Of a DNA stretch of 64,000 nt, positions 11,503-62,766 are shown piece by piece. The position numbers were made by a program, and so were the translations under genes. Below the pieces are notes generated by a model, which searched no databases, was not told where the DNA came from, and saw only the letters and a program-made list of their open reading frames with translations. Origin of the DNA: a virus (Duplodnaviria > Caudoviricetes); the IMG/VR virus record IMGVR_UViG_3300028601_000031, positions 8,228-72,227 of that record. One strand, written 5' to 3'. The number at the start of each line of letters is the position of its first letter. The stretch's first letter is position 1.

Positions 11503-11533
11503 CAAATTTAATAAATATATTTAAATATACAAA
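11503..11533 (-). promoter_or_regulatory. Bacteroidota promoter (TTTG-N19-TAAATTTG) driving the pncA operon
   Basis: Both consensus elements present. Confidence 0.65.
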
Positions 11534-11537
11534 ATTA

Positions 11538-14451: not shown

Positions 14452-14763
14452 TCATTCATTAATTAATTGATTTCTTTTATCTAAATTTTCTAATTTATCT
14501 ACATATTTTTTTAGAATATCACCATGACATGATAATGGATAACACCAACATCCTAATGTTTTATATTTTAATTCATGTAAAGAATTCATTAATTCTTTGT
14601 TATTTAACAAATATTCTTCATATTTTTGAATCGATTCTTGTCTTGTATCAACTTTAAATTCTGCTATTGTATCATTTTTATGTGAATATGGATTTCCCCA
14701 TTTAGAAGGTCTACCTATATAAATATCAAATTTTTCTTTTTTACAATGTACTACTTTACACAT
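14452..14763 (-). CDS. DUF4326-family protein
   Basis: VVHCKKEKFDIYIGRPSKWGNPY...LGCWCYPLSCHGDIL. Confidence 0.8.
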   Translation of the reverse strand: MCKVVHCKKEKFDIYIGRPSKWGNPYSHKNDTIAEFKVDTRQESIQKYEEYLLNNKELMNSLHELKYKTLGCWCYPLSCHGDILKKYVDKLENLDKRNQLINE

Positions 14764-15164
14764 TATATACCATCTTTTATTTTTTTAATTTTTTTAAATC
14801 TTAACTTCAATTTATTAACATATATTTTAGTTAAATTAAAAAATTCATCATCAGTTAACAAACCCTTTTTATTCTTATTGGATAAAATAAAATTTGTTAT
14901 TATATCAATATTTTTATCATTTTCAATATCTTTGACATTAACATGTAACATTATATCACCAGTATTTACAATAATACTACTTAATTTTGTTTTATTAAAT
15001 ATATCTAGATATGATTCATAATAAGAATCACCCTCATTAAAATAACAACCACCAATATCATTTTCTCTGAATTTAACTGGTTTACCAGACATTACCCAAT
15101 TAGCAAAAAATTCATATATAGACTCTTTTTGTTCTTGTGTTAATCTATTTGAATAATCTTTCAT
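14763..15164 (-). CDS. Hypothetical protein with C-terminal RxxKIxxI tag
   Basis: Ends ...LRFKKIKKIKDGI. Confidence 0.65.
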   Translation of the reverse strand: MKDYSNRLTQEQKESIYEFFANWVMSGKPVKFRENDIGGCYFNEGDSYYESYLDIFNKTKLSSIIVNTGDIMLHVNVKDIENDKNIDIITNFILSNKNKKGLLTDDEFFNLTKIYVNKLKLRFKKIKKIKDGI

Positions 15165-15165
15165 A

Positions 15166-15393
15166 TTATTTATTTTTTAATAGTTTGATTATTTTATATT
15201 TTCTTTCAAAAATTTTAAATTTTTCATCTATACATACAGTATCAGATAATTTTGGGTAATCTTTGTAAAAATTATAATATTTTTTTAGAATATCAATATC
15301 AATATCAGTCATAATAGATATGCAGTTAAGTATATTTATACTGCCATCTTTTTTAATTGATTTTGATATTTTATCATTATACATTGATATCAT
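15166..15393 (-). CDS. Small protein with C-terminal RxxKIxxL tag
   Basis: Ends ...ERKYKIIKLLKNK. Confidence 0.6.
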   Translation of the reverse strand: MISMYNDKISKSIKKDGSINILNCISIMTDIDIDILKKYYNFYKDYPKLSDTVCIDEKFKIFERKYKIIKLLKNK

Positions 15394-21634: not shown

Positions 21635-22066
21635 CTATAGTTTTTGAATTAAAATTCCATCTTTATCAAACATTATCAAATCAAATCCTAATACTTTTAT
21701 ATTCTTATCTTTATAAAATTCTGATAGTGAACCAACATTTTTTCTAACTTCTGAAAAATTATGAGATCTTTCTGACATAATTTTAATTTGTTCATCGGTT
21801 GGTTCACTTTCAAAAAATATAATAAAATTATCAGAATTTGAATTATCCAACGCAACTGGTCTATAACATCCATGATCATCAGGTAAATCTTTAATATTAC
21901 TAAATAAATTTGATATATTCATGTCAACAAATTCATCACCTACTCCACATTCTCCTAATTGACCAGTCATATATGCACACATTTCTCTCTCAAAATTACC
22001 TGCATAAGAATCAGTTTTAACTTTAAATCCCCAATAAATTTCTTTCATATTATTAATCAATTTCAA
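21635..22066 (-). CDS. Hypothetical phage protein
   Basis: TDSYAGNFEREMCAYMTG..GECGVG; operon ORF. Confidence 0.7.
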   Translation of the reverse strand: MKLINNMKEIYWGFKVKTDSYAGNFEREMCAYMTGQLGECGVGDEFVDMNISNLFSNIKDLPDDHGCYRPVALDNSNSDNFIIFFESEPTDEQIKIMSERSHNFSEVRKNVGSLSEFYKDKNIKVLGFDLIMFDKDGILIQKL

Positions 22067-22400
22067 CGGTTGCTTCTAAATTTCTACTATTTAATCCTTT
22101 TTTTAATTTCATCATTTCATCAAATGATCCAGTTTTAACAACTGATTTACCCTTGTTGTGTGCTTCCATTGTTACTCTAATACATTCTTCACTTGATAAT
22201 TTACAAATATCATATAACGCTAACATTACATCCATAATATCATTGACATGATCATTCCATAGTATTAGTCTATAAACATCAGATTTCGAATTTTTAATAC
22301 CTAATTCACTTAATAAATCGGTTATGCTATCAGTATCAGATGATACACTACTTTGTATATCATTTAACATTTGCTCATATTTGTCTCTACTATACATCAT
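22053..22400 (-). CDS. clpS: Clp protease adaptor ClpS
   Basis: YRLILWNDHVN....V...L......ME.HNKGKSVV...GL..RNL.AT. Confidence 0.85.
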   Translation of the reverse strand: MMYSRDKYEQMLNDIQSSVSSDTDSITDLLSELGIKNSKSDVYRLILWNDHVNDIMDVMLALYDICKLSSEECIRVTMEAHNKGKSVVKTGSFDEMMKLKKGLNSRNLEATVEID

Positions 22401-24559: not shown

Positions 24560-24955
24560 TTAAAAGTTATAATTATTTAATTTTATTTCTTTTAAAATCA
24601 ATAAATTACAATTTTTATTTTTAATTTTATTTATTTTTAATTTTCTTATATATAAATCATCATATATTGGTACCAATCTATTATCATCCCATCTCATATT
24701 ACCATCTAAATATATTTTTATTTTATTCGCTAATATTCCTATAAGACCTATTTTATCATGATTAAATGATAATTTACTATGTGATGGTATATTATCCATT
24801 AAATTTGATATTATATTACCATTAGTTTTAATTTTCGTAAAATTGTAAATATTAGAAAATTTTATAATATCCATAATAATTTGTCTATTTATAGTTGATA
24901 TATTATGTAATAATGATATGGTATCATTAATATCTATATTAATATCTTCTATCAT
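24560..24955 (-). CDS. Small protein resembling a degenerate major-capsid-protein fragment, with RxxKIxxI tag
   Basis: IKTNGNIISNLMD...IGILANKIKIYLDGNMRWDDNRL, then IRKLKINKI. Confidence 0.5.
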   Translation of the reverse strand: MIEDINIDINDTISLLHNISTINRQIIMDIIKFSNIYNFTKIKTNGNIISNLMDNIPSHSKLSFNHDKIGLIGILANKIKIYLDGNMRWDDNRLVPIYDDLYIRKLKINKIKNKNCNLLILKEIKLNNYNF

Positions 24956-25647
24956 TGTTTATAATAATTATCATAATCTATTTTAGTAATAAAATTATCA
25001 AATGTTGTTCTAACAATTTTACCATTATCATCTTTTAAATAAATTAAATATTTAGTATTAAAATCATTGTCAATTTTAACATTAATATCAATTATACTAT
25101 ACTCTTTATCTAATGTAAAATTTTTTTGACATTTTATACAAACCAATTTGTGATTTTTTAATTTTAATAGTATCCCTTTAATTTGTTGAGATAATGATTC
25201 TAATTTCTTATTAATATACTTACTTTTATTTATGGGTTTTGGTTTAGGTTCTTCACCATCAACTTTATCACCTTTTATTTCATTACAAGGTTTACATAAA
25301 AGTTGATAATTTTCTAATTCATTTTTGCCCCCTTTACTTTTTGGATAAATATGATCAATTGTATACATATAAGGTTCACCGTTATCATCACTATATAAAT
25401 CTAAATGCCATCTACCCGCATTATCTTTTGCTGAAGCAAAATATTCTGGTATTTTATTACAATACTGACATTTTAATCCATCCCTATCAATTAAACTTTT
25501 TATTATATTAGCTCTTTTTAAAGAGTCGCTCATATCTTTAACATGAAATATTAATTCATCTGGTATTTTATTTTCTTTTAGTAAATCAAAGACCTCTTTT
25601 ATTGTATATTTTTTATAAATCTTATAACCATGATTGTTTCTTGGCAT
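24952..25647 (-). CDS. HNH endonuclease with C-terminal SH3-like extension
   Basis: CQYC...TIDHIYPKSKGGKNELENYQLLCKPCNEIKG. Confidence 0.85.
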   Translation of the reverse strand: MPRNNHGYKIYKKYTIKEVFDLLKENKIPDELIFHVKDMSDSLKRANIIKSLIDRDGLKCQYCNKIPEYFASAKDNAGRWHLDLYSDDNGEPYMYTIDHIYPKSKGGKNELENYQLLCKPCNEIKGDKVDGEEPKPKPINKSKYINKKLESLSQQIKGILLKLKNHKLVCIKCQKNFTLDKEYSIIDINVKIDNDFNTKYLIYLKDDNGKIVRTTFDNFITKIDYDNYYKQ

Positions 25648-33977: not shown

Positions 33978-34190
33978 ATGGATAAAAATACAGAAACACC
34001 TAAATTCTTTAGTGAAAACGTATGGTTAAAAAGATTAGGATTGGTAATTTTAATTTTAGGTATGTATCCTAATATTGTTGCTGAATATCCTGTATATGTA
34101 GATTATATTATTAAATTTGTAGTTGGTGCAATTATTTTATCATATGTTTTAAAAATGGTAGTTGGATTTTTTAAATCTCTTCTAACTTAG
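33978..34190 (+). CDS. Small two-TM membrane protein
   Basis: Two hydrophobic helices; TATATTTG promoter at 33950-33957. Confidence 0.7.
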   Translation: MDKNTETPKFFSENVWLKRLGLVILILGMYPNIVAEYPVYVDYIIKFVVGAIILSYVLKMVVGFFKSLLT

Positions 34191-34590
34191 ACATTCTATT
34201 TAATAATTTTTCAATTTTTTCTTTTCTCATCAATAAATCATAATCGATACTTTCAGCCCAATCATATATTATATTCATGTCTATATCATTATATGATGAA
34301 TGTGAATTAAAATCAATTGTCATTTCTTCAATAATAGAGTTATAAAAAACCATACATGTATTATCATATATTATTAACTTTGATGGTTTTTTAGTATTAC
34401 TAATTTTAGTATTATTGGACATAGTTAAATATATTTCATATAATTTATTTATAACATAATGATTATTATCTACTTTTAATCGTATATTATTTGTAAATAT
34501 TTGATAATTATTATTTTGTGTTAATGTCATATTTCCCTTTGAAATATTAAATTTTACATCTAATCCATCATATTCATATATACAAACCAT
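34171..34590 (-). CDS. Hypothetical protein (tail-tube-like C-terminal strands) with RxxKIxxL tag
   Basis: ...IEEMTIDF....NDIDMNIIYDWAE, then MRKEKIEKLL. Confidence 0.55.
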   Translation of the reverse strand: MVCIYEYDGLDVKFNISKGNMTLTQNNNYQIFTNNIRLKVDNNHYVINKLYEIYLTMSNNTKISNTKKPSKLIIYDNTCMVFYNSIIEEMTIDFNSHSSYNDIDMNIIYDWAESIDYDLLMRKEKIEKLLNRMSKLEEI

Positions 34591-34638: not shown

Positions 34639-36093
34639 TTAATTTAAATAACTATTTAATATATTATCGATATCATCAATATCATTATAAGGTATTCTCA
34701 GTAAATTTATGTTATTATTTTTACAATATTCGGTTTTAATGGAATCTCTTAATTTTTGTTTTTTAAATGATTTAATTCCACCAAAATATTCATTAACTTC
34801 AAAATGTTGTTTACCGTCAAATTCAATACATAAATTATAATCAGGTATATAAAAATCAAATTTTAAGGGGTTTATATGTTTACAGTCTTTGAAGGATTTT
34901 TGGTGTATGTGATCAATTTTATTATCATTTAAATATTTTTTTATGGATAATTCACCTTTAGATGATTTACATATAGGACATCCATTATTTTTAATGTGAT
35001 ATTTTGGTTTTTGTTCAAAAATACCATGAATCGGACAAATTATTTTTACTTCAGTTAAATTATTTTTATACTTAACTAATGAATAATCATATTTATCATT
35101 ATGTATTTCTTTTGAATCTTTAATAAATTGTTCATAATTCTTTCTTTTTTTACCACTACAATCATAACACCCTTTATTTGTTAAATGACTACTTGGTAAT
35201 TGTTCAAAAATACCATGAATCGGACAAATTATTTTTACTTTAGTATAATTGTTTATATATTTAACTAAAGAATAATCATATTTATTATTGTGTAATTTTA
35301 CAGATCTATCAATAAAATCAACTGTTGTTAATTTTTTATTATTAGAACATACAGGACATCCAGATCCATTTAGATGATCAATTGATGATTGATTAAAAAT
35401 ACCATGTTTCGAACAAATTATATTAATTTTTATCATAGTGTTTTTATAATTAACTAAAGAGTAATCGTATTTATCACCATGAATATTTTTACATTTTTTT
35501 ATAAATTGTTCTGTCGTTAATATATTTTTTGCACACTTATTACAACCTATATTTAACAGATGACTATTTGGTGTTTGTTCAAAAATACCATGAACTGGAC
35601 AAATAATTTTAACTTTTGTTTTGTTATTTTTATATTTAACTAACGAGTAGTCATATTTATTGTTATGAATTATATTTGAACGTTTTATAAATTCATCTTT
35701 ATTCAATCTACTATTACCATAACACAGTGGACATCCTTGTTTATTCAAATGATTTTTTGGTGTTTGTTTAAATTCACCATGTTTTTTACATATAATAATA
35801 ACTTTTGTTTTAACATTAATATAGTTAACTAAACTATAATCATATTCAAAATTATGAACAATATTTGATTTATTTATAAATTGTTCTTTGGTAAATTTTT
35901 TATTTATAATCGCGCATTTAGGACAACCATTATTAATATGATTATCTGGTCTTTGTTCAAATATTCCGTGTTCTTTACATATTATTTTAACTTTAGTCTT
36001 ACTATTTATATAATCAACTAAAGAATAGTCATATTTATAATTATGTTTTTCGTTTGATTTATTTATAAACTCTTCTTTATTTGACTTTTTCAT
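34639..36093 (-). CDS. Zinc-repeat (6x) PD-(D/E)XK homing-endonuclease-like protein
   Basis: Six CxxHG repeats plus FDFYIPDYNLCIEFDGKQHF. Confidence 0.8.
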   Translation of the reverse strand: MKKSNKEEFINKSNEKHNYKYDYSLVDYINSKTKVKIICKEHGIFEQRPDNHINNGCPKCAIINKKFTKEQFINKSNIVHNFEYDYSLVNYINVKTKVIIICKKHGEFKQTPKNHLNKQGCPLCYGNSRLNKDEFIKRSNIIHNNKYDYSLVKYKNNKTKVKIICPVHGIFEQTPNSHLLNIGCNKCAKNILTTEQFIKKCKNIHGDKYDYSLVNYKNTMIKINIICSKHGIFNQSSIDHLNGSGCPVCSNNKKLTTVDFIDRSVKLHNNKYDYSLVKYINNYTKVKIICPIHGIFEQLPSSHLTNKGCYDCSGKKRKNYEQFIKDSKEIHNDKYDYSLVKYKNNLTEVKIICPIHGIFEQKPKYHIKNNGCPICKSSKGELSIKKYLNDNKIDHIHQKSFKDCKHINPLKFDFYIPDYNLCIEFDGKQHFEVNEYFGGIKSFKKQKLRDSIKTEYCKNNNINLLRIPYNDIDDIDNILNSYLN

Positions 36094-36152: not shown

Positions 36153-36815
36153 TTAAACACCAATGATCTTATCGATGGCCCCATAATCCTTTGCCTCAAT
36201 TGATGTCATCCAATAATCTCTATCACAATCCCATTCCACTTTTTCATAAGGTTGACCAGTTTTATCTGATATTATCTGATAAAGTTCATTCCTTAACATT
36301 TCAATTTGTTTAGCAGTAATTAAAATATCAGATGCTTGTCCTTGTACACCCCCTAATGGTTGGTGTTGCATAAGACGACTATGTTTTAATGCACTTCTTT
36401 CTTTACCAGAAATAGCAAGAATAAATGCCATCGATGCTGCCATTCCAGTTACCATAGTATTTACATCATTGGAAATGAAGTTCATAGTGTCCAATATGGA
36501 ATATCCCGCATAAATCCCACCGCCCGGACTATTCAGATAAAGGTGAATTGGGCTATTATTATCATTAGATTGTAAAAATAACAGTTGTGCAGTAATAATA
36601 TTACTTACTGTATCGTCTATTGCGGTGCCAAGAAAAACAATACGATCCATAAGTAATCTACTGAATACGTCCATACTAGCTACATTCATCTGTCGTTCTT
36701 CAATAATAGATGGATTAATATAACCACCGATAACTTTTCCATATTGGTGCATTGCAGTGGCACTAACACCCATGTCTTTTCTAAATAAATTAAAATCTTT
36801 TCCTAAGTTTGTCAT
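36153..36815 (-). CDS. clpP: ATP-dependent Clp protease proteolytic subunit
   Basis: MDVFSRLLMDRIVFL, YLNSPGG, GMAASMA (Ser), MQHQP (His), DRDYWM (Asp). Confidence 0.95.
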   Translation of the reverse strand: MTNLGKDFNLFRKDMGVSATAMHQYGKVIGGYINPSIIEERQMNVASMDVFSRLLMDRIVFLGTAIDDTVSNIITAQLLFLQSNDNNSPIHLYLNSPGGGIYAGYSILDTMNFISNDVNTMVTGMAASMAFILAISGKERSALKHSRLMQHQPLGGVQGQASDILITAKQIEMLRNELYQIISDKTGQPYEKVEWDCDRDYWMTSIEAKDYGAIDKIIGV

Positions 36816-37375: not shown

Positions 37376-37789
37376 TTATTTAATTATTTTTTCAATTTTA
37401 TTAAGTTTTAAAATTCTTTGTACTTCTTTGGGTTTTAAACATTGTTCTCTTAATTTTATTGTTTCTTTTAGAACATTATCATATGACCAGTTGTGCATAT
37501 TATCACCACTATGACAAGTATCAAAACCAATTATCCATAAATCTTCTTCATCATCATAATCAGAAAATGTTAATCCACCATGTACACTAGTATGTTTATA
37601 TAAGTCATCATAATCTATTTTATAAAAAGGGTGCCAAACAGGAATACCAACATACCCATTTCCCCATCCACCTATCATTTCTACATGTACTCCAAAATCT
37701 TTTTGTTTAGAATATTCATGTAAATGATTTCTAACTAAATATATAGGTAGTTGGTTATAATGTGGTAATTTATTTATTTTAAAGTTCAT
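37376..37789 (-). CDS. Conserved phage protein with C-terminal RxxKLxxI tag
   Basis: GWGNGYV..P..HP...VHGGLTF...IGFDTCH.GD; ends [14 protein letters not shown]. Confidence 0.7.
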
Positions 37790-38843
37790 TAAAATTTTCC
37801 AATTTTGATAGTTCTTCTAATAATATTTTTTCTTCTTTTGTTATTTTATCTGGAATATCTACATTTATTAATATATAAAGATCTCCTTTATTGTTTCTTT
37901 GATCTGATAAACCTTTACCTTTCAATCTTAATGTATCTCCGTTTTTTGTATGTGGTTTAATATTTATAGATACATCCCCATCTAATGTAGGAATTATTGA
38001 TTTACCACCCAATATAATTTTAGTAAATGGTATGTATAATTCATAAATTAAATTTATTCCATCTCTTTTTAACTTTTCATGTTCTTTAACATTTACATGT
38101 ATTATTAAATCACCATACATACCACCATTACCTGGTCTATATGGGGAATTTCCTTTTGTTCTTATTTGAAATCTATCATCATTATTTACACCCTTTGGTA
38201 TTTTGATGTTAATTTCTGTTTCTTCATCAATTACACCAGTTCCTGTGCAATGTGAACAAGTTTTTAATATAATATGCCCACTTCCGTTACATTTATCACA
38301 ATCTACAATTGTTGATGATATACCGAACATTGTTTTTCTTCCAATTTTTAATTTTCCTACACCACCACATTTATCACATGTTTCTGTTTCTCCTCCAAAA
38401 CCATTACATGAATTACATTTAACCTTTCTATTATATTTTATGTTCTTATCAACACCATCTCTAACATCATAATAATCAATATTTATTTTAAGTCTTAAAT
38501 CATTACCTCTATTAACTTTTTGTTGAAATCCACCACCAAAACCAAAATTAAAACCAAAATGACTAAAAATATCATCAAAATTCATGTTAAAATTGCCCAT
38601 AAAATCATCATAATTAAAACCACTATTAAATCCTTTATTATCACCAAATCTATCATAATTTTGCTTTTTTTGAGAATCTGATAATACAGAATATGCTTCT
38701 GATATATCTTTAAATTTTTGTTCAGCTTCTTTATTATTTGGATTTTTATCTGGATGATATTGCATGGCTAATTTACGATATGCCTTTTTTATTTCATCGG
38801 GTGTTGCATTTTTATCTACACCTAGTATATTGTAATAATTCAT
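37779..38843 (-). CDS. dnaJ: Molecular chaperone DnaJ
   Basis: J-domain with HPD, G/F-rich region, four CxxCxGxG motifs, C-terminal domain. Confidence 0.95.
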
Positions 38844-42612: not shown

Positions 42613-43023
42613 TTAATTATTATACTTTTTCATAAAGTCAACAACAGATGAATATATTGACTTAATTAATGATTCGTCAATACTATATGATATAACATTT
42701 TTATCAAAAGAATATTCACCTATTTCAGAAAAAGTTGTTACATATAATACTTTATCATCGAAGACATTTTTAATACTAAATCTATAATTAAAACCATTTA
42801 GTGATTTTAATTTAGATATTTTTTTAACAACTGGCATTATCCAATCAAATGATTTAGAAAATTTTAATTCATCATCATTATCAGATAATCCACTTATAAT
42901 TAATTCTTCATGATCAATATCTGTTCTACCATTTTTTTTGGGTATCCAACAATTTTCATCTACACTAAACTCAAGATTCATAAATTTAGCAATTATAATA
43001 TCACCAATTAAATTTTTATTCAT
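42613..43023 (-). CDS. Hypothetical phage protein
   Basis: IIAKFM...LKFSKSFDWIMPVVKKI pattern. Confidence 0.7.
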   Translation of the reverse strand: MNKNLIGDIIIAKFMNLEFSVDENCWIPKKNGRTDIDHEELIISGLSDNDDELKFSKSFDWIMPVVKKISKLKSLNGFNYRFSIKNVFDDKVLYVTTFSEIGEYSFDKNVISYSIDESLIKSIYSSVVDFMKKYNN

Positions 43024-44008
43024 CGAAATTTGTATTTAAATAATTTAGCCAAAAAATTCTAGCTTTTGCAGATATAGCTTTTCCAATTTTTTTAATATTA
43101 ATATTATTTTTCTCTATTGTATCTGATTCTTCCTTAATAACATCATTATAAACCCACTTCAAGTAATCTGCAGTAGATTTATCAATAATTGGAATATTTA
43201 ATTCTCTCATTTTATCAATACCTTGTGTCAATCTATTTTCAGTGACAGCATAATCGACAAAAGACTTAATATTTTCAATTTCCTCAATATCAACAGTAGT
43301 TAAAGTTTTTACTTTACTTACTTGGTGTTTTTCTCCTTTAACTTTAAAAATATATCTTTTATTATCATTAATATGTTCCCACACAATCCCTTCTCCTGTT
43401 CCTGATACATCAAAATATTTTCCAATAGGGCATTCTTTTTCTACATTATTAGTTAATTCAGATAATATATTTATTGATAATTCAGGTCGATTAAAATTAA
43501 TATCTATTTCAAAATTAGGAAATTGTAATATATTAAAAATTAATTGATCTTCGTTTTTTATATGTGCAAAATTAGACATATCTTTATAAAGACCATCTAT
43601 TTTTATAGCAAAAATAACAAACATTTTAGGTAATTGGGATATTGCCACTTTTTTCTGAATACCCTTACCACACCATTCACCATAAATAGCACAATATTCA
43701 TTAAACTGAATATTATCAAATAATTTTTGATAATCTTTTTTAATCATTTCATTCATGAAATTATAATTATCTTCAGTTAATGATAATTCAGATTCTCTGG
43801 ATTGAAATTTATATGTACCATCAGCATATTTAACAATAGATGAGTTAGAACCATGTAATTTTACAGTTCCTCTAAATTTCATTGTAGGGTATGGTGTAGT
43901 ATGATTAAAAATAGCTTTACCATCATCATTCTTACCTGCATAATCATGACTATCTTTAACCTGTCTAATGACATTTCTAAATTGTTCTATTTCGGTAAAT
44001 TTTTTCAT
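43016..44008 (-). CDS. ATP-dependent RNA ligase (Rnl2-like); probable start MKKFTEIEQFR
   Basis: Motif I VKLHGSN, QSR, IYGEWCG.GIQK, GEGIVW, FKVKGEKH. Confidence 0.8.
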   Translation of the reverse strand: MKKFTEIEQFRNVIRQVKDSHDYAGKNDDGKAIFNHTTPYPTMKFRGTVKLHGSNSSIVKYADGTYKFQSRESELSLTEDNYNFMNEMIKKDYQKLFDNIQFNEYCAIYGEWCGKGIQKKVAISQLPKMFVIFAIKIDGLYKDMSNFAHIKNEDQLIFNILQFPNFEIDINFNRPELSINILSELTNNVEKECPIGKYFDVSGTGEGIVWEHINDNKRYIFKVKGEKHQVSKVKTLTTVDIEEIENIKSFVDYAVTENRLTQGIDKMRELNIPIIDKSTADYLKWVYNDVIKEESDTIEKNNINIKKIGKAISAKARIFWLNYLNTNFDE

Positions 44009-44009
44009 T

Positions 44010-44339
44010 TTAATCTTTTTGGTATTTAGATATTTGTGTAATTTCATTATGGGTGAAACCAGATCTTTCTAAAGCTTCAGCAAAAGGAATCCATACATTT
44101 TCTTTTTGTGGTTCACCAGAACAATAACCATAATAATCTCTAGTTCCCCACCTATCTACAACAGCTTTAGTTCGTGCTACTAGTTTATTTTTATCTTTAA
44201 TAAGTTTAGCCATTCTAGATGCGCATGATTGAAAAGGAGCACCATTACCATAAAATGTACGTCCGTTAAACTGAAGACTATCTGCTCTTTCGTAATCTTT
44301 TTTAGTTGGGATAATTTTATCAATATCTATTCCATTCAT
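44010..44339 (-). CDS. Hypothetical protein
   Basis: First gene after the promoter at 44355-44386. Confidence 0.65.
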   Translation of the reverse strand: MNGIDIDKIIPTKKDYERADSLQFNGRTFYGNGAPFQSCASRMAKLIKDKNKLVARTKAVVDRWGTRDYYGYCSGEPQKENVWIPFAEALERSGFTHNEITQISKYQKD

Positions 44340-45861: not shown

Positions 45862-46050
45862 TTAATAACAATATGAATCGTCATTTTCACCAGAAGGATA
45901 ATATAAACTTTTACCTAAACTATTTATTTCATCTCTTTCTTTTTCCAATTCACGTCTATTGCTTTCAATGATTCTCCTATTAACTTTAGATTCCCATCTT
46001 TTTGATTTTGCTTTATTAATATTTTTTCTTACTTCATTTCTCCAACTCAT
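45862..46050 (-). CDS. Small basic protein
   Basis: Operon ORF. Confidence 0.55.
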   Translation of the reverse strand: MSWRNEVRKNINKAKSKRWESKVNRRIIESNRRELEKERDEINSLGKSLYYPSGENDDSYCY

Positions 46051-46477
46051 AATTAATTATTTTTAATATTTTATCTTTTCTTTTATATTTTTCTAAAAAT
46101 TTCATAGTATTATCATACATATTAATTTTACTATTTAATCTTTTTTGTTGTCTTAATAATTCTTTTATTGTATTATTTTTTGTTTCAAATAACTTATCAT
46201 AAAATCTATTTATCAATTCTATTTCTTTTTTCTTTAAATATTCTTCATTGTTTATTTTTCTTGTTATAAATGTAGAGTATGTTAAATCTGTTTTATTATA
46301 ACTATAATTATTATCAAAATAAAATTTATCCCAACTTTCACCATCACGAAAACCAACTCTAAAATATTCTCTTGTTAATATAATTTTATCACTGTATAAA
46401 TTCAATGAAATTCTATATGATATAGGTTCATCTTTAAAACTATCTAAGTCTGATTTTTCTTTTATAATTAATTCCAT
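46034..46477 (-). CDS. Hypothetical protein with RxxKIxxI tag
   Basis: Ends KRKDKILKIINYELEK. Confidence 0.65.
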   Translation of the reverse strand: MELIIKEKSDLDSFKDEPISYRISLNLYSDKIILTREYFRVGFRDGESWDKFYFDNNYSYNKTDLTYSTFITRKINNEEYLKKKEIELINRFYDKLFETKNNTIKELLRQQKRLNSKINMYDNTMKFLEKYKRKDKILKIINYELEK

Positions 46478-46781
46478 TTGAAAGTTTTTTAATTTTTGAT
46501 TGTCTTAATACCATATTAAAAAAATCTATAGATATTTTACCTGAAAAAAATTCTTGAAAATTATAATGTTCCCATAAGTTACCCTCAATTATTTTAAATT
46601 CATCATTTACAATTTTTGCAAATTGTGGCATATTTAAATCAAATTTATCAAGATGTTGTGTCATCTTTTCATTAGACGATGTTGAAAATGTGTTATATTT
46701 AACATATTCTTCATCACATTTTAATAGAAAATTAAGTATTAAACATGCACCTATTTGAATATCTTCATCATTTAATTTCAT
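46440..46781 (-). CDS. Hypothetical protein with RxxKIxxL tag
   Basis: LRQSKIKKL near the C-terminus. Confidence 0.65.
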   Translation of the reverse strand: MKLNDEDIQIGACLILNFLLKCDEEYVKYNTFSTSSNEKMTQHLDKFDLNMPQFAKIVNDEFKIIEGNLWEHYNFQEFFSGKISIDFFNMVLRQSKIKKLSNGINYKRKIRLR

Positions 46782-47115: not shown

Positions 47116-48554
47116 ATGAACTACACATTAGCTAAAGACTAATGTGTTTCAGGAATATACCTTCTCTTTAATCGTTTCATTGCTTATGCCATTTAATTCC
47201 GAGAAATTATTTGGTCTTATTTTTGCTCCGCGATCGTTATCAGATGTTCCGTCTGATATATTTAATCTTAATCCTTCTTTTAATATATTTATGGCTGCAT
47301 TAATATCTCTATCTAGTTTAGCACCACATTTATTACATATCCATTTTCTTTGATGAAGTTTTAAGTTTTGATTTATATGACTACATTTATTGCAAGTTTT
47401 AGATGAAGGGAAAAATCTATCTACTTTAATTAATTGTTTATCGTTCCAATCACATTTATAACTTAAAATATCGATGAATCTACCCCAGCTAACGTCAGAA
47501 ATTGATTTAGATAGTTTTCTATTTTTAATCATTCCTTTGATATTTAAATCTTCAATGTAAATAGTATCAAATTCATTAATTAGTTTAAATGTTATTTTAT
47601 GTAACATATCTGATCTAGAATTTGAAATCTTTTCATGGATTCTACAAACTTTTAATCTTTGTTTTTCGTATCTTTTTGATCCCCTTGTTTTTCTTGATAA
47701 ATGTTTTTGATTTAAACTTAATTTTCTTTCATATTTCTTTAAATATCTGATGCCCTTGGTTTTCGAACCATTAGATAGAGATATGAAGTCATTTAAACCT
47801 AAATCCATACCAATATTTTTATTGGTTTTTTTAACTGGTTGATATTCTTTTTCGACTAAAATTGAAACATAATATTTACCAGTTGAGGTCTTTGATATAG
47901 AACATTTTTTAATTAAACCTTCTATATTCCTGTGTTTAACCATTTTAATCCCACCTTTAAACTTTGGTATAATTAAATAGTTATCTTCTACCTTTACACT
48001 CTGTGGTACAGTAAAGGTATTTTTTGTTTTTCTACTTTTAAATCTAGGAAATCCACTTCTTTTTTTAAAAAATGATTGGTATGCTATATCCAAACAATTT
48101 AAACTATATTGTAAGGTCTGTGAATTAATTTCTTTTAACCACTGATAATCAGGATCTTTTTTAAGTTTAGTTAAAAAAGAAGATTGTTGGTTATAAGTTA
48201 TAGATTTTTTATTATTAACGTATTCTTCTTTTCTTTGGTTTAAAAAATGGTTGTATACAAATCTGACACATCCAAAATACCTATTTAAAATATATTGTTG
48301 TTCTTTATCAGGGTTTAACCTGAATTTATATGTATATATTATATTTTTCATCTTTATAGTAATTAATTCCTTTACTATAAATATATATTAAATGAAAAAT
48401 ATCACTTTTTTCCATTTTTACAATTTAAATATCTAACAGATTGATTATTAGTTATTTAAATTTTAAAAATATTTTTAAAAAATTAAATTCAATTGAAATT
48501 TATTGAAATTCATCCCTCTAACTAAAGATTAGATGGTTTTCTTTCAAGGTGAAT
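47116..48554 (-). mobile_element. Non-autonomous IS200/IS605-family (IS1341-like, tnpB-only) element
   Basis: Subterminal hairpins sharing a ctaaaga loop (47123-47147 and about 48515-48536), right end ...TTCAT, TTTAT target motif 5' of the left end, no target-site duplication. Confidence 0.8.
47149..48351 (-). CDS. tnpB: RNA-guided endonuclease TnpB
   Basis: N-terminal YKFRL.P...FGCVRFVYN; RuvC IGMDLG / IEDL / DRDINAA; zinc finger CNKC..CNKC. Confidence 0.95.
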   Translation of the reverse strand: MKNIIYTYKFRLNPDKEQQYILNRYFGCVRFVYNHFLNQRKEEYVNNKKSITYNQQSSFLTKLKKDPDYQWLKEINSQTLQYSLNCLDIAYQSFFKKRSGFPRFKSRKTKNTFTVPQSVKVEDNYLIIPKFKGGIKMVKHRNIEGLIKKCSISKTSTGKYYVSILVEKEYQPVKKTNKNIGMDLGLNDFISLSNGSKTKGIRYLKKYERKLSLNQKHLSRKTRGSKRYEKQRLKVCRIHEKISNSRSDMLHKITFKLINEFDTIYIEDLNIKGMIKNRKLSKSISDVSWGRFIDILSYKCDWNDKQLIKVDRFFPSSKTCNKCSHINQNLKLHQRKWICNKCGAKLDRDINAAINILKEGLRLNISDGTSDNDRGAKIRPNNFSELNGISNETIKEKVYS

Positions 48555-55261: not shown

Positions 55262-56209
55262 TTACAAAGATCCAAATAATTCTTGACTAATTGATTTCCC
55301 GTTACTAACTCTTTTAATAGCCTTAGCTAACATTTCATCAATTGATAATACTTTTATTTTATTACTTAATCCATGTTTAATTGGAATAGAATCAGTAACA
55401 ATTAATTCTGTTAATTTAGAATTATTAATATTATTATAAGCGTTACCTGATAGTATAGGATGACAAATAAGAGCCCTTACTGATTTTGCACCAGATTCCA
55501 TCAAAAGATCAGCAGCTCTTGAAATAGAACCACCGGAATCGATTATATCATCAATTAAAAAGACATCTTTATCTTGGACATCTCCAATAAGTTTCATAGT
55601 AGAAATAACACCAGGTTTTGATCTTTCTTTATGAATAACCACTAAATCTGTTTGTAATACATTAGAATAACGACTTGCTCTTTTTGTTCCACCTACATCT
55701 GGCGTTGCAATAACCATATTATCAGTATCGAAGTTTTCTTTAATATATGGTATGAATACATAACTAGAACTTAAATGATCAACGGGTATATCAAAAAATC
55801 CTTGAATTTGGTCACAGTGCAAATCGAGTGTAATAATTCTATTAGCACCTGATGTAGTTAATAAATCCGCCATTAATTTTGCTGAAATTGGAACTCTTGG
55901 TTTATCTTTTCTATCTTGTCTAGCATAACCAAAATATGGAATAACTGCTGCTATTCTCTTAGCAGATGCTCTTTTTGCAGCATCTAACATTAAAAATAAT
56001 TCCATCATACTATCATTAGAATTGGTTGATTGTATAATGAAAACATTGTCTTTTCTAATTGATTGATTATAATGAACTAATATTTCACCATCAGTAAATT
56101 TTTTAAGTTCAATATCATTCAAAATTGCTTCCTTATTATTAAAATAGGACTCAACTACCTTTTTAGATAGTTGTGGAATTGATGTACCTGAAAAGATTTT
56201 TATTGCCAT
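55262..56209 (-). CDS. prs: Ribose-phosphate pyrophosphokinase
   Basis: FTDGE, PYFGYARQDRK, DLHCDQIQGFF, PDVGG, DDIIDSGGS. Confidence 0.95.
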   Translation of the reverse strand: MAIKIFSGTSIPQLSKKVVESYFNNKEAILNDIELKKFTDGEILVHYNQSIRKDNVFIIQSTNSNDSMMELFLMLDAAKRASAKRIAAVIPYFGYARQDRKDKPRVPISAKLMADLLTTSGANRIITLDLHCDQIQGFFDIPVDHLSSSYVFIPYIKENFDTDNMVIATPDVGGTKRASRYSNVLQTDLVVIHKERSKPGVISTMKLIGDVQDKDVFLIDDIIDSGGSISRAADLLMESGAKSVRALICHPILSGNAYNNINNSKLTELIVTDSIPIKHGLSNKIKVLSIDEMLAKAIKRVSNGKSISQELFGSL

Positions 56210-58003: not shown

Positions 58004-58564
58004 TTACAAATTTTTATGTTTAATATTTGTTATGCTAATGTATTTAGCAGGTACAAAATCAGTTAACCAAACTTTATTTTCAGATAAATAAAATTTATAA
58101 CCATCTTCGTACATTTTCTTTGATTCTATTCTTAGAATTACTGGTTTTAAAGTCTTTGCATGTCTTTGACCAACATGAAATGCTGTCAATTTATTGTCAG
58201 ATAAATGAACAAATTTTCTTGACATTTTATACAATCCATTTTGCATAATACTATCAATAACTGTTGGTGTTGTACCATGAAATAAAAACATTGGAGGTTC
58301 TAATTCTGCAAATTTAATAGTAACAAAATCAATTGAATGTCCCTGATTTGCTCTTATTTTCAATTCACCATCAAAATACTTATATGAGTATCTTTGTTTA
58401 TCATCCTTAAATACAAGCATATCCAATGTATCTTTATCTGTTTTGATTAAAGATAATAATTCTTTAATACTAACCCAACCGTCTTGATCCATTTTCATTC
58501 CTCTTGGATCATGTCGAAGCAAGTAAGCTAGCTTCTTTGATATTTTCATTAAATCCTTTTCCAT
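58004..58564 (-). CDS. kptA: RNA 2'-phosphotransferase (Tpt1/KptA)
   Basis: SKKLAYLLRH, DDKQRY, IRANQGHS, LFHGT, MSRKFVHLS, VWLTDFVP. Confidence 0.93.
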   Translation of the reverse strand: MEKDLMKISKKLAYLLRHDPRGMKMDQDGWVSIKELLSLIKTDKDTLDMLVFKDDKQRYSYKYFDGELKIRANQGHSIDFVTIKFAELEPPMFLFHGTTPTVIDSIMQNGLYKMSRKFVHLSDNKLTAFHVGQRHAKTLKPVILRIESKKMYEDGYKFYLSENKVWLTDFVPAKYISITNIKHKNL

Positions 58565-58973
58565 ATATTAATTTTTTAATTTTATGTATTCTTAACACAT
58601 CTTTAAATTCCATTTTTAGTATTCCATTACCGTCATATCTTGATATTGTTAAGTCTTTTATTTTATGAATATTCTTAAAAATATTATTTAAAAAATAATT
58701 ATACTCTTCGATTGTTTCTATTGCTTGTAATTCATATTTATCTAAATTATATGACATTCTATAACAAGCATATGGTTCCATAATTTCTTCAACTTTCCAG
58801 TCATCTTCTGTTAAATCTTTAATTAACTTATCTCTATTTATAATATAAATTGATTTAGAATACCCGCAACTATTACAAAAAGTAAATTCTTCACCTGTTT
58901 TATAATTAAAATCAGATATACAATCACCTGTCTGACATCTTGGACACTCAATATAATCAATTATAGTTCCCAT
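58509..58973 (-). CDS. Zinc-ribbon protein with RxxKIxxL tag
   Basis: CPRC..CNSCGY; LRIHKIKKL. Confidence 0.7.
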   Translation of the reverse strand: MGTIIDYIECPRCQTGDCISDFNYKTGEEFTFCNSCGYSKSIYIINRDKLIKDLTEDDWKVEEIMEPYACYRMSYNLDKYELQAIETIEEYNYFLNNIFKNIHKIKDLTISRYDGNGILKMEFKDVLRIHKIKKLIYGKGFNENIKEASLLAST

Positions 58974-59443
58974 ACATTCTTAATTTTATTAATTTTTAAA
59001 AATCTTTCTTCCTTTCTTATATCATCTAAACTAAAATGATTATTATTTGGTATACTGCAATACCTAATTTTTTCAATTGTAAAGATACCTTTTTTTACTA
59101 TAATAATCAAATCTGATTCATAAAATGTTGATGCAATAGTTCCTATATCTGTTATGTTTATAAAGTTTTTTAATTTTCTGATATCTATAACAGATTCAAA
59201 TCTTTTAATGCTACTATAAGGATTAGAAATTCTAAAATTATCTCTTATAAGTATAACATTATCATTATTTGACAATTCAATAATTTCTTTTATTGTATAT
59301 TTATCATAATAATCATTATTAAACTCCATAACATTATTAAAATACTTAGATATAATTGATGCTAATAAATTACAATTACGTCTATCAAATGTAGTTCTAT
59401 ATAAAAATGTAATTCTATTATGTTTTATTATTTTTTCTAACAT
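58961..59443 (-). CDS. Hypothetical protein (possible degenerate DnaB-like C-terminal fragment) with RxxKIxxI tag
   Basis: ESDLIIIV...TIEKIRY; ERFLKINKI. Confidence 0.55.
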   Translation of the reverse strand: MLEKIIKHNRITFLYRTTFDRRNCNLLASIISKYFNNVMEFNNDYYDKYTIKEIIELSNNDNVILIRDNFRISNPYSSIKRFESVIDIRKLKNFINITDIGTIASTFYESDLIIIVKKGIFTIEKIRYCSIPNNNHFSLDDIRKEERFLKINKIKNVWEL

Positions 59444-59745
59444 ATATAAGATAAATGATCAATAATTATAATATCTGGTTTTATATTTAATTTCATCACT
59501 ATATTTGGGTATAATGATGAAAAATCATAATTAGACTTAAATTTAGTAAATAATCTAAACCCAATTAAATGTTTATCACATTTATTTAAAAGTTTATAAA
59601 GTTTTAATTTCCTTATAAATATAAATAATTCATTTCTATTAGAAGTATCAACAATATGATCAATATTTATATCATTCATATGGGTTTTAATATCGCCATT
59701 AATTATAAAATAATGATTACCAATATATTCTATATTAAATATCAT
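59437..59745 (-). CDS. Small chimeric protein: RxxKLxxL tag, PolB motif A-like and Walker-B-like peptides
   Basis: IRKLKLYKL...YDFSSLYPNIVMKLNI-KPDIIIIDHL. Confidence 0.6.
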   Translation of the reverse strand: MIFNIEYIGNHYFIINGDIKTHMNDINIDHIVDTSNRNELFIFIRKLKLYKLLNKCDKHLIGFRLFTKFKSNYDFSSLYPNIVMKLNIKPDIIIIDHLSYIC

Positions 59746-59939
59746 TTAGATAAGATTTTATGTAAATTATTACAACCAATTTTAATTAAATAAAAAGATA
59801 ATATAGATACACTAATAAAAGTTATAAAATTAATAATTGGTTTAAATGGAACAGTATGTAAATATAACAAAGAAAATAGCATAATAATTGAAAAAATTAT
59901 TAGTACTATGTTAGTAAATATTAATATAAATCTTTTCAT
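59742..59939 (-). CDS. Small two-TM membrane protein
   Basis: Hydrophobic ORF. Confidence 0.6.
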   Translation of the reverse strand: MKRFILIFTNIVLIIFSIIMLFSLLYLHTVPFKPIINFITFISVSILSFYLIKIGCNNLHKILSK

Positions 59940-60331
59940 TTTTGTATTTTTTTAATTATTCTATTAAGTTTATTAAGTCTTTTAAATTTTAAATATTTTG
60001 GATCTTCGTACAATTCGTACCAATATTGGCCATCTCCGAACCTTAATATATTTTCTATATGTACTTTAATTTCATCTATAACAAGATCAATTAATTGAAA
60101 ATTATCCATAAATGTATAACACCATATAGAGTAATCATCTTCTTTTATATTCCAATCCTCATAATATTCGTAATAAGGTTCTTTTCCTTGTTTTATTAAT
60201 TCTTCATCTATTTTTTTACCAATTTCTATATGATTATAAATCATTTGTTTTTGTTCATCGGTTATTTTATGTAAAGGAATAATGAAGCTACTTGAACTAC
60301 TATTACTAACAAATCCTTTTCTTATTTTCAT
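59936..60331 (-). CDS. RxGFVSNSSSS-leader protein with RxxKLxxI tag
   Basis: MKIRKGFVSNSSSSSFII; KRLNKLNRII. Confidence 0.75.
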   Translation of the reverse strand: MKIRKGFVSNSSSSSFIIPLHKITDEQKQMIYNHIEIGKKIDEELIKQGKEPYYEYYEDWNIKEDDYSIWCYTFMDNFQLIDLVIDEIKVHIENILRFGDGQYWYELYEDPKYLKFKRLNKLNRIIKKIQK

Positions 60332-60530
60332 ATAATTTTTTAATTTTTAATATTCTATATTCTGTTAATAAAATAAATCTATTTGATAAAATACCTCCAT
60401 TATTAAGTAATTCTTTTATTAGTACTGCTTGATTATTAATTACATATTCAATTGTGTATTTTTCTCCTAATTTTAATGATGTACGTGGTGATGTACTAAT
60501 ACAAACCACAACATCCCCCTTTTTAAACAT
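60306..60530 (-). CDS. Small SH3-like protein with RxxKIxxL tag
   Basis: FKKGDVVVCI...LKLGEKYTI...RF; YRILKIKKL. Confidence 0.65.
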   Translation of the reverse strand: MFKKGDVVVCISTSPRTSLKLGEKYTIEYVINNQAVLIKELLNNGGILSNRFILLTEYRILKIKKLYENKKRIC

Positions 60531-60541: not shown

Positions 60542-61126
60542 TTAATGATGATTAAATTTTTTAAATGTTATTGGATTAAGAATATCACTATGTTCAATAT
60601 ATCCTCCTATTTGACCATCTTCATCAGCATAAGTCAATTTAATAAATTTAGAATCTTTTTCTAAAGTATATGACAATCCCATTTTTATTAAATCTACAAT
60701 TTGTTCTAATAAAATATTTGACATTGACCAAGATATTTGATTATTGAATTTATTATTACTATCCCATCTTACTTTATTATTTAAAAATTTATTACATAAC
60801 ATGTAATATTCATCTATTTTATCTTTTGGAATATATTTTTCGTATTCATAAACATCGTCTTCGTTATAAATATAAATTTCATTATCAAGATCAATATCAT
60901 TAATAGTAGTTTTTTCACCAACAAATTCTAATTCTCTTTTTATATCTTCATAAATAGTATTTATAACTACTTTTTTATTAATATAATCACCCCAATGTGA
61001 TAAATTATCATAATTTTGAACACCTAATATTTCTTCAAGATGCTGTTCTGAAGTTGGTACAACATCAAGTTTTATAATAAAATTACTTGAACTACTATTA
61101 CTTACAAACCCGTTTCTTACTTTCAT
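60542..61126 (-). CDS. RxGFVSNSSSS-leader protein
   Basis: MKVRNGFVSNSSSSNFII...YADEDG....IEH..I.......NHH. Confidence 0.75.
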   Translation of the reverse strand: MKVRNGFVSNSSSSNFIIKLDVVPTSEQHLEEILGVQNYDNLSHWGDYINKKVVINTIYEDIKRELEFVGEKTTINDIDLDNEIYIYNEDDVYEYEKYIPKDKIDEYYMLCNKFLNNKVRWDSNNKFNNQISWSMSNILLEQIVDLIKMGLSYTLEKDSKFIKLTYADEDGQIGGYIEHSDILNPITFKKFNHH

Positions 61127-61131: not shown

Positions 61132-61533
61132 TTAATTTAAGAAGTTTAACATTTCTTCAAATCTCCAAAAAATTCTAGACATAGCTTCATCTTTATCTAC
61201 AAAACCTGCCCAATCAATTTCTCTTTTTTGTAGTTTATTCTTATCTATAACTATTTCTTTATTTAAATTAACTAAAAAATATATTAACTCTTTATAAACA
61301 TATCCCTTTTCATTCTTATATTGAATTTTATATGGTTTTTTATCAATATATTTTGATTTTATTTTAATTCCTACTTCTTCTTCTGTTTCTCTTATTGCTG
61401 CTTCTATATATGTTTCATCTTCTTCTACTTTACCTTTTGGTATAGAATATGTACCATACCAAGGAGCATTAGTTGGATGAACTAAAAGTATCTTATTATC
61501 ATATATAATTAATAATCCTGCTGATGTTTGCAT
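61132..61533 (-). CDS. NUDIX hydrolase
   Basis: Nudix box PKGKVEEDETYIEAAIRETEEEVG. Confidence 0.92.
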   Translation of the reverse strand: MQTSAGLLIIYDNKILLVHPTNAPWYGTYSIPKGKVEEDETYIEAAIRETEEEVGIKIKSKYIDKKPYKIQYKNEKGYVYKELIYFLVNLNKEIVIDKNKLQKREIDWAGFVDKDEAMSRIFWRFEEMLNFLN

Positions 61534-62079: not shown

Positions 62080-62766
62080 TTAATGTTTTGATTCTACATA
62101 AACAGGTAAATCACCAAATATACCACCATGTTCCATTATTGAAAAATATGTTCCACTTTCATCAGAAAAAGTAAACGAATAAAATACCATACCTTTGTGT
62201 TTATCAACATATTGTTCTATTTCATCTAATGTATCAGATATAATTCCAATAACATATCTATTATTTATTTCATTTTCTAGATCTTCATATATATCATCAG
62301 CATTTTTAATATCCCAATTAAAATTACTCTTCATGTTTTCTAACTTTTTAAATTCTTCTACTTGAAGTTTAATATCATTTAAATTTTTTATAATTTCACC
62401 GTTAATATTATATGTGCCGTCATTATCTGCCCAAATTTCTCCACTAATTTCAGATAAGGCATAAAGATAATTATTAGGACCTTGTTTTTTAATATCTTTA
62501 AAAACATCATTTGTAGCACTATCTTTGAACTCATCAAATGTCATATTAAGAGAATTATATGACCTTACAAAGTCTTTAAATTTATTTATATTATTATCTT
62601 TTTTAGTTTTTTCATCAATAAAATCCCAACTACTTTGGATTGATTTTTCATTTCTTTCATTCCACATTAATTCATATAGTTCTTCTTTATTATTAATTTC
62701 TCTAGGAAAAAATACAAGAAAACTACTTGAACTACTATTACTTACAAACCCATTCCTAATTTTCAT
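62080..62766 (-). CDS. RxGFVSNSSSS-leader protein
   Basis: MKIRNGFVSNSSSSSFLV...FSDESG....MEHG.IF..LP....SKH. Confidence 0.75.
   Translation of the reverse strand: MKIRNGFVSNSSSSSFLVFFPREINNKEELYELMWNERNEKSIQSSWDFIDEKTKKDNNINKFKDFVRSYNSLNMTFDEFKDSATNDVFKDIKKQGPNNYLYALSEISGEIWADNDGTYNINGEIIKNLNDIKLQVEEFKKLENMKSNFNWDIKNADDIYEDLENEINNRYVIGIISDTLDEIEQYVDKHKGMVFYSFTFSDESGTYFSIMEHGGIFGDLPVYVESKH

Follow-up and report, generated by a model that had tools for sequence, protein, structure and literature searches.

We analyzed a 64,000-nucleotide stretch (hereafter the window) of the viral record IMGVR_UViG_3300028601_000031 (Duplodnaviria; Caudoviricetes), positions 8,228 to 72,227 of that record, with a focus on two small neighboring open reading frames (ORFs), orf102 and orf160 (Table 1). 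The former carries a short segment resembling motif A of family-B DNA polymerases (PolB), and both contain a basic sequence of the form R-x-x-K-[ILV]-x-K-[ILV], the R-x-x-K tag, which recurs in small proteins of the same contig. The stop of orf102 and the start of orf160 overlap in the window; their counterparts in L003, one of two related metagenome loci (L003 and L004), do not overlap. Both are genuine neighboring accessory genes on the same strand, and neither encodes an enzyme.

Polymerase motif-A likeness in the orf102 family

Relatives of orf102 were seen only in uncultured phage contigs and form a family of small proteins (98–140 amino acids). Homologues from public metagenomes comprise proteins of 80–105 amino acids at 65–96% identity, three distant ones of 124–140 amino acids, and five further cluster members. 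Family-wide statements below refer to an alignment of 13 members (A5; 34–96% identity). P0014 (1576 amino acids, 20 stretches) was excluded from the alignments as an artefact of tandem repeats, and a truncated and a frame-shifted form (P0004, P0006) were left out of A5 and of the broader alignment A3. Residues I2, Y7, G9, F13, N16, F43, R45, K46, L47, K48, K58, L60, D74, L78, Y79, and P80 are invariant. The family is built of four parts, namely an N-terminal part rich in beta structure, a basic amphipathic helix around an R-K-L-K core, a motif-A element of ~22 residues, and a fast-evolving tail.

A first-pass annotation, made from the sequence alone, had matched the C-terminal part of orf102 to PolB motif A, and we confirm that this likeness is a real, above-chance property of the whole family. 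PolB ranked first among named families for residues 72–96 in all three profile libraries searched: Pfam PF00136 (E 0.0082; residues 73–93, profile positions 63–83 of 453), PHROG phrog_262 'DNA polymerase' (E 1.5e-4; residues 72–94), and NCBIfam NF004418 'type B DNA-directed DNA polymerase' (E 7.1e-4; residues 72–96; 17.9 bits against a cut-off of 692). When family profiles were searched against the PDB, PolBs aligned at motif A made up 13 of 15 hits with alignment A1 and 25 of 25 with A3. Profile–profile comparisons (hhalign) used alignments of five T4-like PolBs and six gp41 helicases taken from named phage records, with reversed templates as controls. The 13-member family matched the PolBs with a probability of 90% (P 1.6e-6) over 22 columns, and the three distant members alone matched at 85% (P 6.2e-6), against P values of 0.1–0.59 for the controls. 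Chance resemblance, which the first-pass annotation had itself raised as a possibility, is therefore not what was found for PolB.

The pattern D..[SY]LYP is present in 13/13 members and S77 is nearly invariant, with variable residues between and after these positions. With patterns defined post hoc, the match being already known, a loose motif A is expected 2e-4 times in the window's 107 non-overlapping ORFs (19,507 residues, also the input of the Pfam scan) and occurred in one of 2000 shuffles; adding N-[ILV]-x-P-[DE] lowers the expectation to 1.5e-8. Like orf102, the RB69/T4 gp43, Pol alpha/delta, and archaeal PolB enzymes have a hydrophobic strand ending in Asp, then S-L-Y-P, a helix, and N-I-x-P-D/E, and residues 72–93 align to residues 407–430 of RB69 and to Pol alpha. 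By our own count, orf102 agrees with motif A in the N-terminal half of the PolB of a 636-kb phage at 12 of 19 positions. An atlas search added, as a lead only (score 0.76), a cluster of 98-residue viral proteins with PF00136 on 62% of its 53 members.

Nothing else of a polymerase accompanies the element. With search patterns written from consensus sequences, motif B (K-x3-N-S-x-Y-G) and motif C (D-T-D) were found in 0/13 orf102-family and 0/8 orf160-family members, and the helicase Walker A (G-x4-G-K-[ST]) was likewise absent from all of them. The orf102 family also shows no exonuclease, N-terminal, fingers, or thumb domain. Family-B polymerases have 800–1000 residues and all of these domains, whereas orf102 with its 102 residues and motif A only cannot polymerise; the earlier statement that neither ORF is a functional enzyme agrees with these counts.

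Two other assignments of orf102 were tried and rejected. A resemblance suggested an intein C-terminal region, which ends in His-Asn before a Cys, Ser, or Thr, for residues 1–24, but the intein C-terminal model TIGR01443 matched nothing on the contig at E<=10, phmmer of residues 1–40 against the PDB gave no hits, and the N-terminal family profile gave three hits, none an intein. DSAD1 (SPbeta YotI) is like orf102 in size, phage origin, and counter-defence surroundings; a full-length but insignificant match to it (E 0.73–0.96) was obtained with profile A1 and disappeared with the broader A3 (0/25 hits).

Conservation and selection

Gene order around the pair is kept in both metagenome loci and runs through GFVSNSSS-family genes, a 64-amino-acid membrane protein, orf102, orf160, a zinc-ribbon ORF, and Tpt1. 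When the window was compared with L003, the ratio of non-synonymous to synonymous substitution rates (dN/dS) was 0.12 for codons 1–62 of orf102 and 1.13 from codon 63 to the end (5 synonymous, 23 non-synonymous changes). For orf160 it was 0.76–0.79 against L003 and L004, and neighboring genes ranged from 0.18 (Tpt1) to 0.56. The L004 allele of orf102, present on two contigs, has a 16-nucleotide deletion just upstream of the motif that yields an 80-amino-acid product and removes the tail. The downstream DNA is still nearly identical to that of L003, so the loss is recent.

The high ratios for the orf102 tail and for orf160, together with the L004 deletion, would be expected if both ORFs were decaying remnants that stay open by chance. 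We regard such neutral debris as very improbable and already largely refuted. The frames are open in all full-length homologues (34–98% identity) despite about one in ten random triplets being a stop, and by our own arithmetic at ~10% stop triplets the chance of 102 and 160 open codons is roughly 1e-5 and 1e-8. Moreover, codons 1–62 are under clear constraint, invariant residues are clustered, and gene order is conserved, so that the neutral decay foreseen in the first-pass annotation as the alternative to its own reading is not observed. The N-terminal part and helix of orf102 are strongly constrained, and the tail consists of a few fixed residues in a fast-changing, losable context. Such a pattern is more readily explained by a short binding element than by a folded catalytic site, and it is at odds with the whole gene decaying neutrally.

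Resemblance to replicative helicases

Directly after motif A, orf102 reads KPDIIIIDHL, which had been taken for a DnaB Walker B. The letters are present and, as in the superfamily 4 helicases T4 gp41 and DnaB, K-P-D, four hydrophobic residues, and D-H/Y-L resemble the Walker B strand. If orf102 were a helicase relic, its C-terminal half would be a strand-helix-strand unit ending in this Walker B and its polymerase look would be accidental. Pairwise BLASTP alignments give this idea some substance, with 15/28 identities between the C-terminal 28 residues and cyanophage P-SSM4 gp41 and 27/88 between residues 15–102 and a Paraglaciecola virus helicase; the last two residues of orf102, I-C, are also those that close the aligned gp41 segment. 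A tblastn search of 50,697 phage records returned 115 weak matches (E 0.1–10), the annotated ones nearly all PolB or cyanophage gp41, with gp41 genes accounting for most of the records.

These database-wide helicase E values are only 3–10, and the gp41 records represent one conserved gene and are thus not independent. At the profile level the 13-member family reached 1.4% (P 0.037) against the six gp41 helicases, which is the level of the controls, and the distant members alone 0.05% (P 0.83). No helicase family matched orf102 in Pfam (E<=10), PHROGs (E<=0.01), or NCBIfam (E<=1). The decapeptide is kept only in the clade of the window and partly in P0015 and P0018, and the invariant D74, Y79, and P80 are not common to gp41. 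Unlike T4 gp41 and DnaB, orf102 lacks Walker A and other helicase motifs, and orf160 lacks any likeness to them. Because the profile signal equals that of the controls, the distant members lack the likeness, and the invariant D, Y, and P are not involved, we do not take the Walker-B letters as a relic. By our estimate a hydrophobic run followed by Asp is common in this proteome, and KPDIIIIDHL is treated here as such a strand that happens to follow motif A, the helicase alternative being highly unlikely.

The neighboring orf160

orf160 is an ORFan with six full-length homologues (155–160 amino acids, 63–98% identity). The DnaB C-terminal motifs once proposed for it could not be substantiated: no family matched in Pfam (E<=10), PHROGs, or NCBIfam, a PDB profile search returned seven unrelated hits, and none of the 11 records found by tblastn was a helicase. 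The best BLASTP E values were 14 against gp41 and 5.1 against PolB, and hhalign of the family against the gp41 helicases stayed at control level (0.2%, P 0.26). An atlas search with orf160 gave no usable match. A further idea reached by eye, in which degenerate versions of PolB motifs B and C lie in orf160 and would make it and orf102 a split mini-polymerase, was not supported (hhalign P 0.72 against PolBs, and 0.16 against the mini-PolB described below). orf160 is unrelated to orf102, with neither helicase nor polymerase ancestry detectable in any of these tests.

Mini-PolB and split polymerases

The pattern of a tagged mini-protein with PolB motifs, first noted for orf102, recurs on the same contig in a 271-amino-acid ORF about 7 kb outside the window, here termed mini-PolB. 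The weak PF00136 signals of the contig lie in this ORF, and hmmscan assigned it to no named family. In hhalign, residues 84–270 are colinear with PolB residues 393–691 through motifs A, B, C, and KKxY (P 3.3e-4, probability 38%, 184 columns), compared with P 0.18 for the reversed control and 0.66 for helicases. All five PDB hits are PolBs (Pol delta at E 0.063). With tblastn, relatives of 222–459 amino acids came up in Flavobacterium phage MaF61 (E 1e-4, annotated as hypothetical) and in three uncultured phages, of 735 kb (E 6e-5), 636 kb (E 6e-6), and 635 kb (E 9e-3). In an alignment of five members both motif-C Asp residues and the motif-B pattern are kept, and the motif-A Asp is lost in 4/5.

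Mini-PolB is like orf102 in being much reduced, PolB-like, and in carrying the same tag. The two differ in what they retain: mini-PolB has motif B, both motif-C Asp residues, and KKxY, mostly without the motif-A Asp, whereas orf102 has that Asp and nothing else. Motif A of mini-PolB (FNVLYPNIIVKL, Asp lost) and of orf102 (FSSLYPNIVMKL) are identical at 8/12 positions.

Polymerases divided over two genes also occur among these relatives. In three huge phages PF00136 is split over two genes that lie hundreds of kb apart, with the break after motif A, such that profile positions of about 20–150 (including motif A) fall on an ORF of 499–515 amino acids and positions of about 123–452 on the other. 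MaF61 has one single PolB of 1001 amino acids. The solved structure of PhiKZ DNAP-N and DNAP-C is described as split within the palm, motif A (D562) belonging to the N-subunit and motif C (D426) to the C-subunit (PMC13648687), and PolB of the 635–735 kb phages with mini-PolB relatives is arranged like this split. A PhiKZ-like split in such phages implies that motif A already functions there on a separate polypeptide. Split N-subunits are, however, about 500–640 amino acids long and keep the exonuclease part, whereas orf102 retains the motif-A element only. A split minimal Pol III alpha has been described in some jumbo phages (PMC7824862, whose main text does not use the word 'decoy'). The PolB of Paraglaciecola Antarctic GD virus 1 (MW805361) is matched by two segments separated by about 1.8 kb, with two in-frame stops inside the first, and its gene may be split or interrupted.

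The R-x-x-K tag

The tag set is defined in this analysis and is not a published family; membership requires the motif within the last 30 residues, a position in which orf160 has it and orf102 does not. Among the 107 window ORFs the motif occurs 11 times in the last 30 residues and once internally, a density of 3.4 per 1000 residues compared with 0.06 elsewhere (about 55-fold). Six-frame translation of the contig gave 19 sites against 2.9 +/- 1.8 in shuffles, and 13 of the 19 lie in long coding frames, 12 of them 12–28 residues before the stop. The sole internal copy is that of orf102, 58 residues before its stop. The earlier description of both ORFs as tagged holds, with the correction that the copy in orf102 is internal and not near the C-terminus. 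Six of eight orf160-family sequences have the tag, the other two being C-terminally cut fragments. The tag is real, and orf160 ends in a basic amphipathic helix like at least 11 other proteins of the contig.

The I/L codons of the tag vary among copies, as do the residues at its x positions, and three tagged genes have no nearby start codon, all of which argues for a feature of the protein. Beyond the tag itself no paralogy was found among the tagged ORFs. Their presence varies between relatives, since neither L003 nor L004 has the 74-amino-acid ORF at 60306–60530, and an additional tagged ORF of 124 amino acids follows the NUDIX gene in L003 (L003:8158–8532). The zinc-ribbon ORF (58509–58973), itself tagged, overlaps the start of Tpt1 (58004–58564) by 56 nucleotides (58509–58564), and its part beyond the tag may be incidental read-on. 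Pfam matches in the window also include a two-AAA Clp ATPase, ClpS, ClpP, and DnaJ; a phage-borne protease system of this kind may bear on the tag.

Interpretation

We lean, with modest confidence, towards the explanation that orf102 and orf160 are non-enzymatic accessory proteins, one of which keeps a PolB-derived element. The motif-A element itself probably descends from a PolB gene, a descent made easier to accept because the phage group carries other reduced PolB forms (tagged mini-PolB, split PolBs). The element, having no catalytic role, might serve orf102 as a surface for binding either the polymerase machinery or whatever recognizes that machinery, and the common basic helix could conceivably be a docking or targeting element at the protein level.

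Several results weigh against this explanation. The PolB match spans 22–25 residues only, and the 15.4 bits scored with PF00136 are below the curated Pfam cut-off of 23, which places orf102 outside that family although it has the motif A (Asp, then S-L-Y-P). PDB profile E values are only 0.27–0.37 with A3, the three distant members individually have no PF00136 match, and the profile comparison of the orf102 family with mini-PolB was not significant (P 0.093). The fast change of the motif-bearing tail and its loss in L004 count on the same side. AlphaFold2 (AF2) models were poor (predicted local distance difference test, pLDDT, 50.4 for orf102 and 42.5 for orf160) and offer no evidence of a fold; Foldseek with the orf102 model returned 0 matches at E<=0.001, with template-modeling (TM) scores <=0.25. 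No recent donor is visible, since a search of 5.8 billion proteins turned up no long one with three 5-residue words in common with residues 60–102, and longer or fused forms of this region were not found in a 5-residue word search, which is weak evidence. A profile search detected no PolB or DnaB gene above threshold on the 72-kb contig, which is an incomplete genome, and the alignment to the phage's own genes proposed in the first-pass annotation was accordingly made to mini-PolB and to PolBs of other phages. As for the tag, it begins 25–45 nucleotides before the next ATG in 9/12 cases, which makes a nucleotide-level share possible. The out-of-frame and intergenic look-alikes found with a position-weight matrix at the same distance from an ATG, few in number, and an A-rich box at -14 to -10 before start codons bear on the same point. 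An mRNA-level contribution of the tag, as the A-rich initiation region of the downstream gene, could be involved.

Convergence or coincidence, in which D-x-x-S-L-Y-P would be the small family's own motif with no evolutionary link to PolB, is a less probable reading that nevertheless deserves some weight. The match covers no more than about 22 residues, E values across whole databases are marginal (0.1–1 in tblastn, 0.3 in the PDB profile search), and the AT-rich proteome abounds in D, F, S, L, Y, N, and I. There is also a look-elsewhere effect, because any well-known motif would have drawn attention in the reading of the window by eye. Against coincidence, three independent profile libraries agree on both family and place, the hhalign P values of 1.6e-6 and 6.2e-6 compare with 0.1–0.6 in controls, and the match runs on into N-I-x-P-D/E as it does after motif A in T4-like and huge-phage PolBs. 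The chance count including this extension, from a post hoc pattern, and the other PolB derivatives in the same phage group argue in the same direction.

A more specific role, which we consider rather improbable, is that orf102-type proteins act as fragment-complementation competitors in huge phages with a two-polypeptide PolB. The motif-A strand-helix would find its docking site in the palm of a PolB C-half or in a mini-PolB like the 271-amino-acid protein, and the polymerase would be switched off or on, whether it belongs to the phage itself (timing control) or to a co-infecting rival. A host sensor is the other conceivable target of this surface. The common basic helix would then be an address that gathers the set of mini-proteins at one place or partner.

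The first-pass annotation had proposed instead that the phage reuses tagged snippets of its own essential, immune-triggering proteins as decoys or baits. In such a model orf102 would present a PolB active-site motif to occupy or mislead a host sensor that recognizes phage polymerase. A phage DNA polymerase is reported to be the putative determinant sensed by the Borvo defence (EVADES preprint, 10.1101/2025.06.06.658234). The motif is kept amid fast change (the orf102 tail and orf160), as is typical of arms-race proteins. The genes sit among likely counter-defence genes (NAD salvage, NUDIX, Tpt1, RNA ligase), and the contig holds a second tagged PolB derivative. We nonetheless find the decoy model unlikely. 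Its generalization to tagged ORFs as pieces of essential proteins finds no backing, because a PHROGs scan of 12 further small ORFs, tagged or near-tagged, matched no capsid, tail, or replication family (E<=0.01), and the helicase 'snippets' fall away. In addition, motif A of PolB lies inside the palm active site, not on an exposed surface. The passages of this anti-defence catalogue consulted here describe no class of trigger-fragment decoys (10.1101/2025.06.06.658234). Two over-readings are corrected: orf102 and orf160 hold no DnaB relic, and decoys have so far found no support.

Inactivated or split polymerase derivatives are already known. In keyword searches of the literature neither mini-proteins with motif A only nor this tag turned up, and supplements may list such families. 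A conserved protein of 100 amino acids with motif A only, beside a tagged 271-amino-acid mini-PolB, would show how far a replicase can be reduced and reused. If the element is a binding surface, D74, S77, L78, Y79, and P80 give a testable handle on it, and if this is true, a handle on split polymerase assembly, interference between rival phages, and defence sensing of polymerases. The C-terminal helix is common to a dozen unrelated small proteins on 72 kb and may explain how giant phages address them.

Genomic setting

Table 1 Features of the window and of related records (window positions unless stated otherwise).
Feature	Position or record	Strand	Basis or remark
orf102, 102 amino acids	59437-59745	minus	ORF ending ...NYDFSSLYPNIVMKLNIKPDIIIIDHLSYIC
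orf102 N-terminal beta-rich part, residues 1-24	59674-59745	minus	Five invariant residues; three strands in low-confidence AF2 model, pLDDT 56-65
orf102 internal tag RKLKLYKL, residues 45-52	59590-59613	minus	RKLK core invariant in 13/13; in predicted helix 39-56
orf102 PolB motif-A-like segment, residues 72-93, NYDFSSLYPNIVMKLNIKPDII	59467-59532	minus	Profile libraries, PDB profile, hhalign
orf102 Walker-B-like letters KPDIIIIDHL, residues 90-99	59449-59478	minus	BLASTP pairs
orf102 stop/orf160 start overlap, 7 nucleotides, ATATGTTAG	59437-59443	minus	ORF calls
orf160, 160 amino acids	58961-59443	minus	ORF containing ...YESDLIIIVKKGIFTIEKIRY...
orf160 most conserved block, residues 91-102, LKNFINITDIGT	59138-59173	minus	Invariant L91, K92, F94-T102; no known motif by profile methods
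orf160 C-terminal tag RFLKINKI, residues 147-154	58982-59005	minus	14 residues before stop; begins 32 nucleotides upstream of next ATG
L004 truncated orf102 allele	L004:4988-5230		Downstream DNA nearly identical to L003
Mini-PolB, 271 amino acids	Contig positions 538-1353	minus	hhalign, PDB, tblastn; ends with RSSKIRKI tag
Three huge phages and MaF61	LR745206, LR756504, PQ858689, LR756501		PF00136 matches
Tagged small ORFs, examples	12412-12789, 14763-15164, 15166-15393, 24560-24955, 34171-34590, 37376-37789, 46034-46477, 46440-46781, 58509-58973, 60306-60530	minus	
Clp/DnaJ genes	18662-21121, 22053-22400, 36153-36815, 37779-38843		Pfam
NAD-salvage and RNA-repair genes	6785-12425, 55262-56209, 58004-58564, 61132-61533, 43016-44047		Pfam
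Homing-endonuclease-like paralogues	1290-2573, 34639-36093		HNH/TnpB set
Further HNH gene and TnpB gene	24952-25647, 47149-48351		HNH/TnpB set
TAnnTTTG sites, examples	62053, 57986, 55252, 44362, 30389, 23688, 22425, 21526, 17020, 11510, 8154, 5794, 3839		
GFVSNSSS proteins	59936-60331, 60542-61126, 62080-62766	minus	phrog_7397, E 3.4e-4 (N-terminal 22 residues only), 3e-10, 2.2e-13

The window is part of a viral contig of 72,227 bp with an estimated completeness of 18% (CheckV). The contig is very AT-rich, its guanine-cytosine content ranging from 19 to 27% (about 22%), and nearly all genes are on the minus strand; a tRNA scan found no tRNA genes. The A-rich box before start codons has almost no G and no Shine-Dalgarno G run, and about 14 minus-strand starts have TAnnTTTG 22–33 nucleotides before the ATG. 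Two such sites, at 62053 and 57986, flank a ten-gene block that includes orf102 and orf160. The start box and TAnnTTTG are both in keeping with a Bacteroidota host. The closest named phage for one gene of the contig (the 271-amino-acid ORF) is a Flavobacterium phage. The contig is a fragment of a large phage whose host probably belongs to the Bacteroidota.

No relatives were found in IMG/VR with the orf102-family or orf160-family profiles. Two viral contigs (G001 and G002) were considered as a guide to the phage's own polymerase and were set aside. They encode PolA and DnaE-type enzymes and no PolB, but are uninformative for the lineage because their only gene in common with the window is a widespread accessory gene, annotated as radical SAM or SPASM in T4-like Klebsiella phages.

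A block of genes for nicotinamide adenine dinucleotide (NAD) salvage and RNA repair comprises, by Pfam, an NAPRTase-family protein, an isochorismatase, an NMNAT-type protein (MazG and cytidylyltransferase-like), a phosphoribosyl pyrophosphate (PRPP) synthase, a NUDIX protein, Tpt1/KptA, and an RNA ligase. Genes of this kind have been tied to counter-defence in other phages. Further Pfam matches are a sigma factor, a response regulator, ankyrin proteins, TnpB, and HNH/homing endonucleases. The fragment is rich in mobile nucleases, among them two paralogous homing-endonuclease-like genes (52% identical), one more HNH gene, and one TnpB. Three proteins open with M-K-[IV]-R-[KN]-G-F-V-S-N-S-S-S-S, and all of them match phrog_7397, a family of unknown function.

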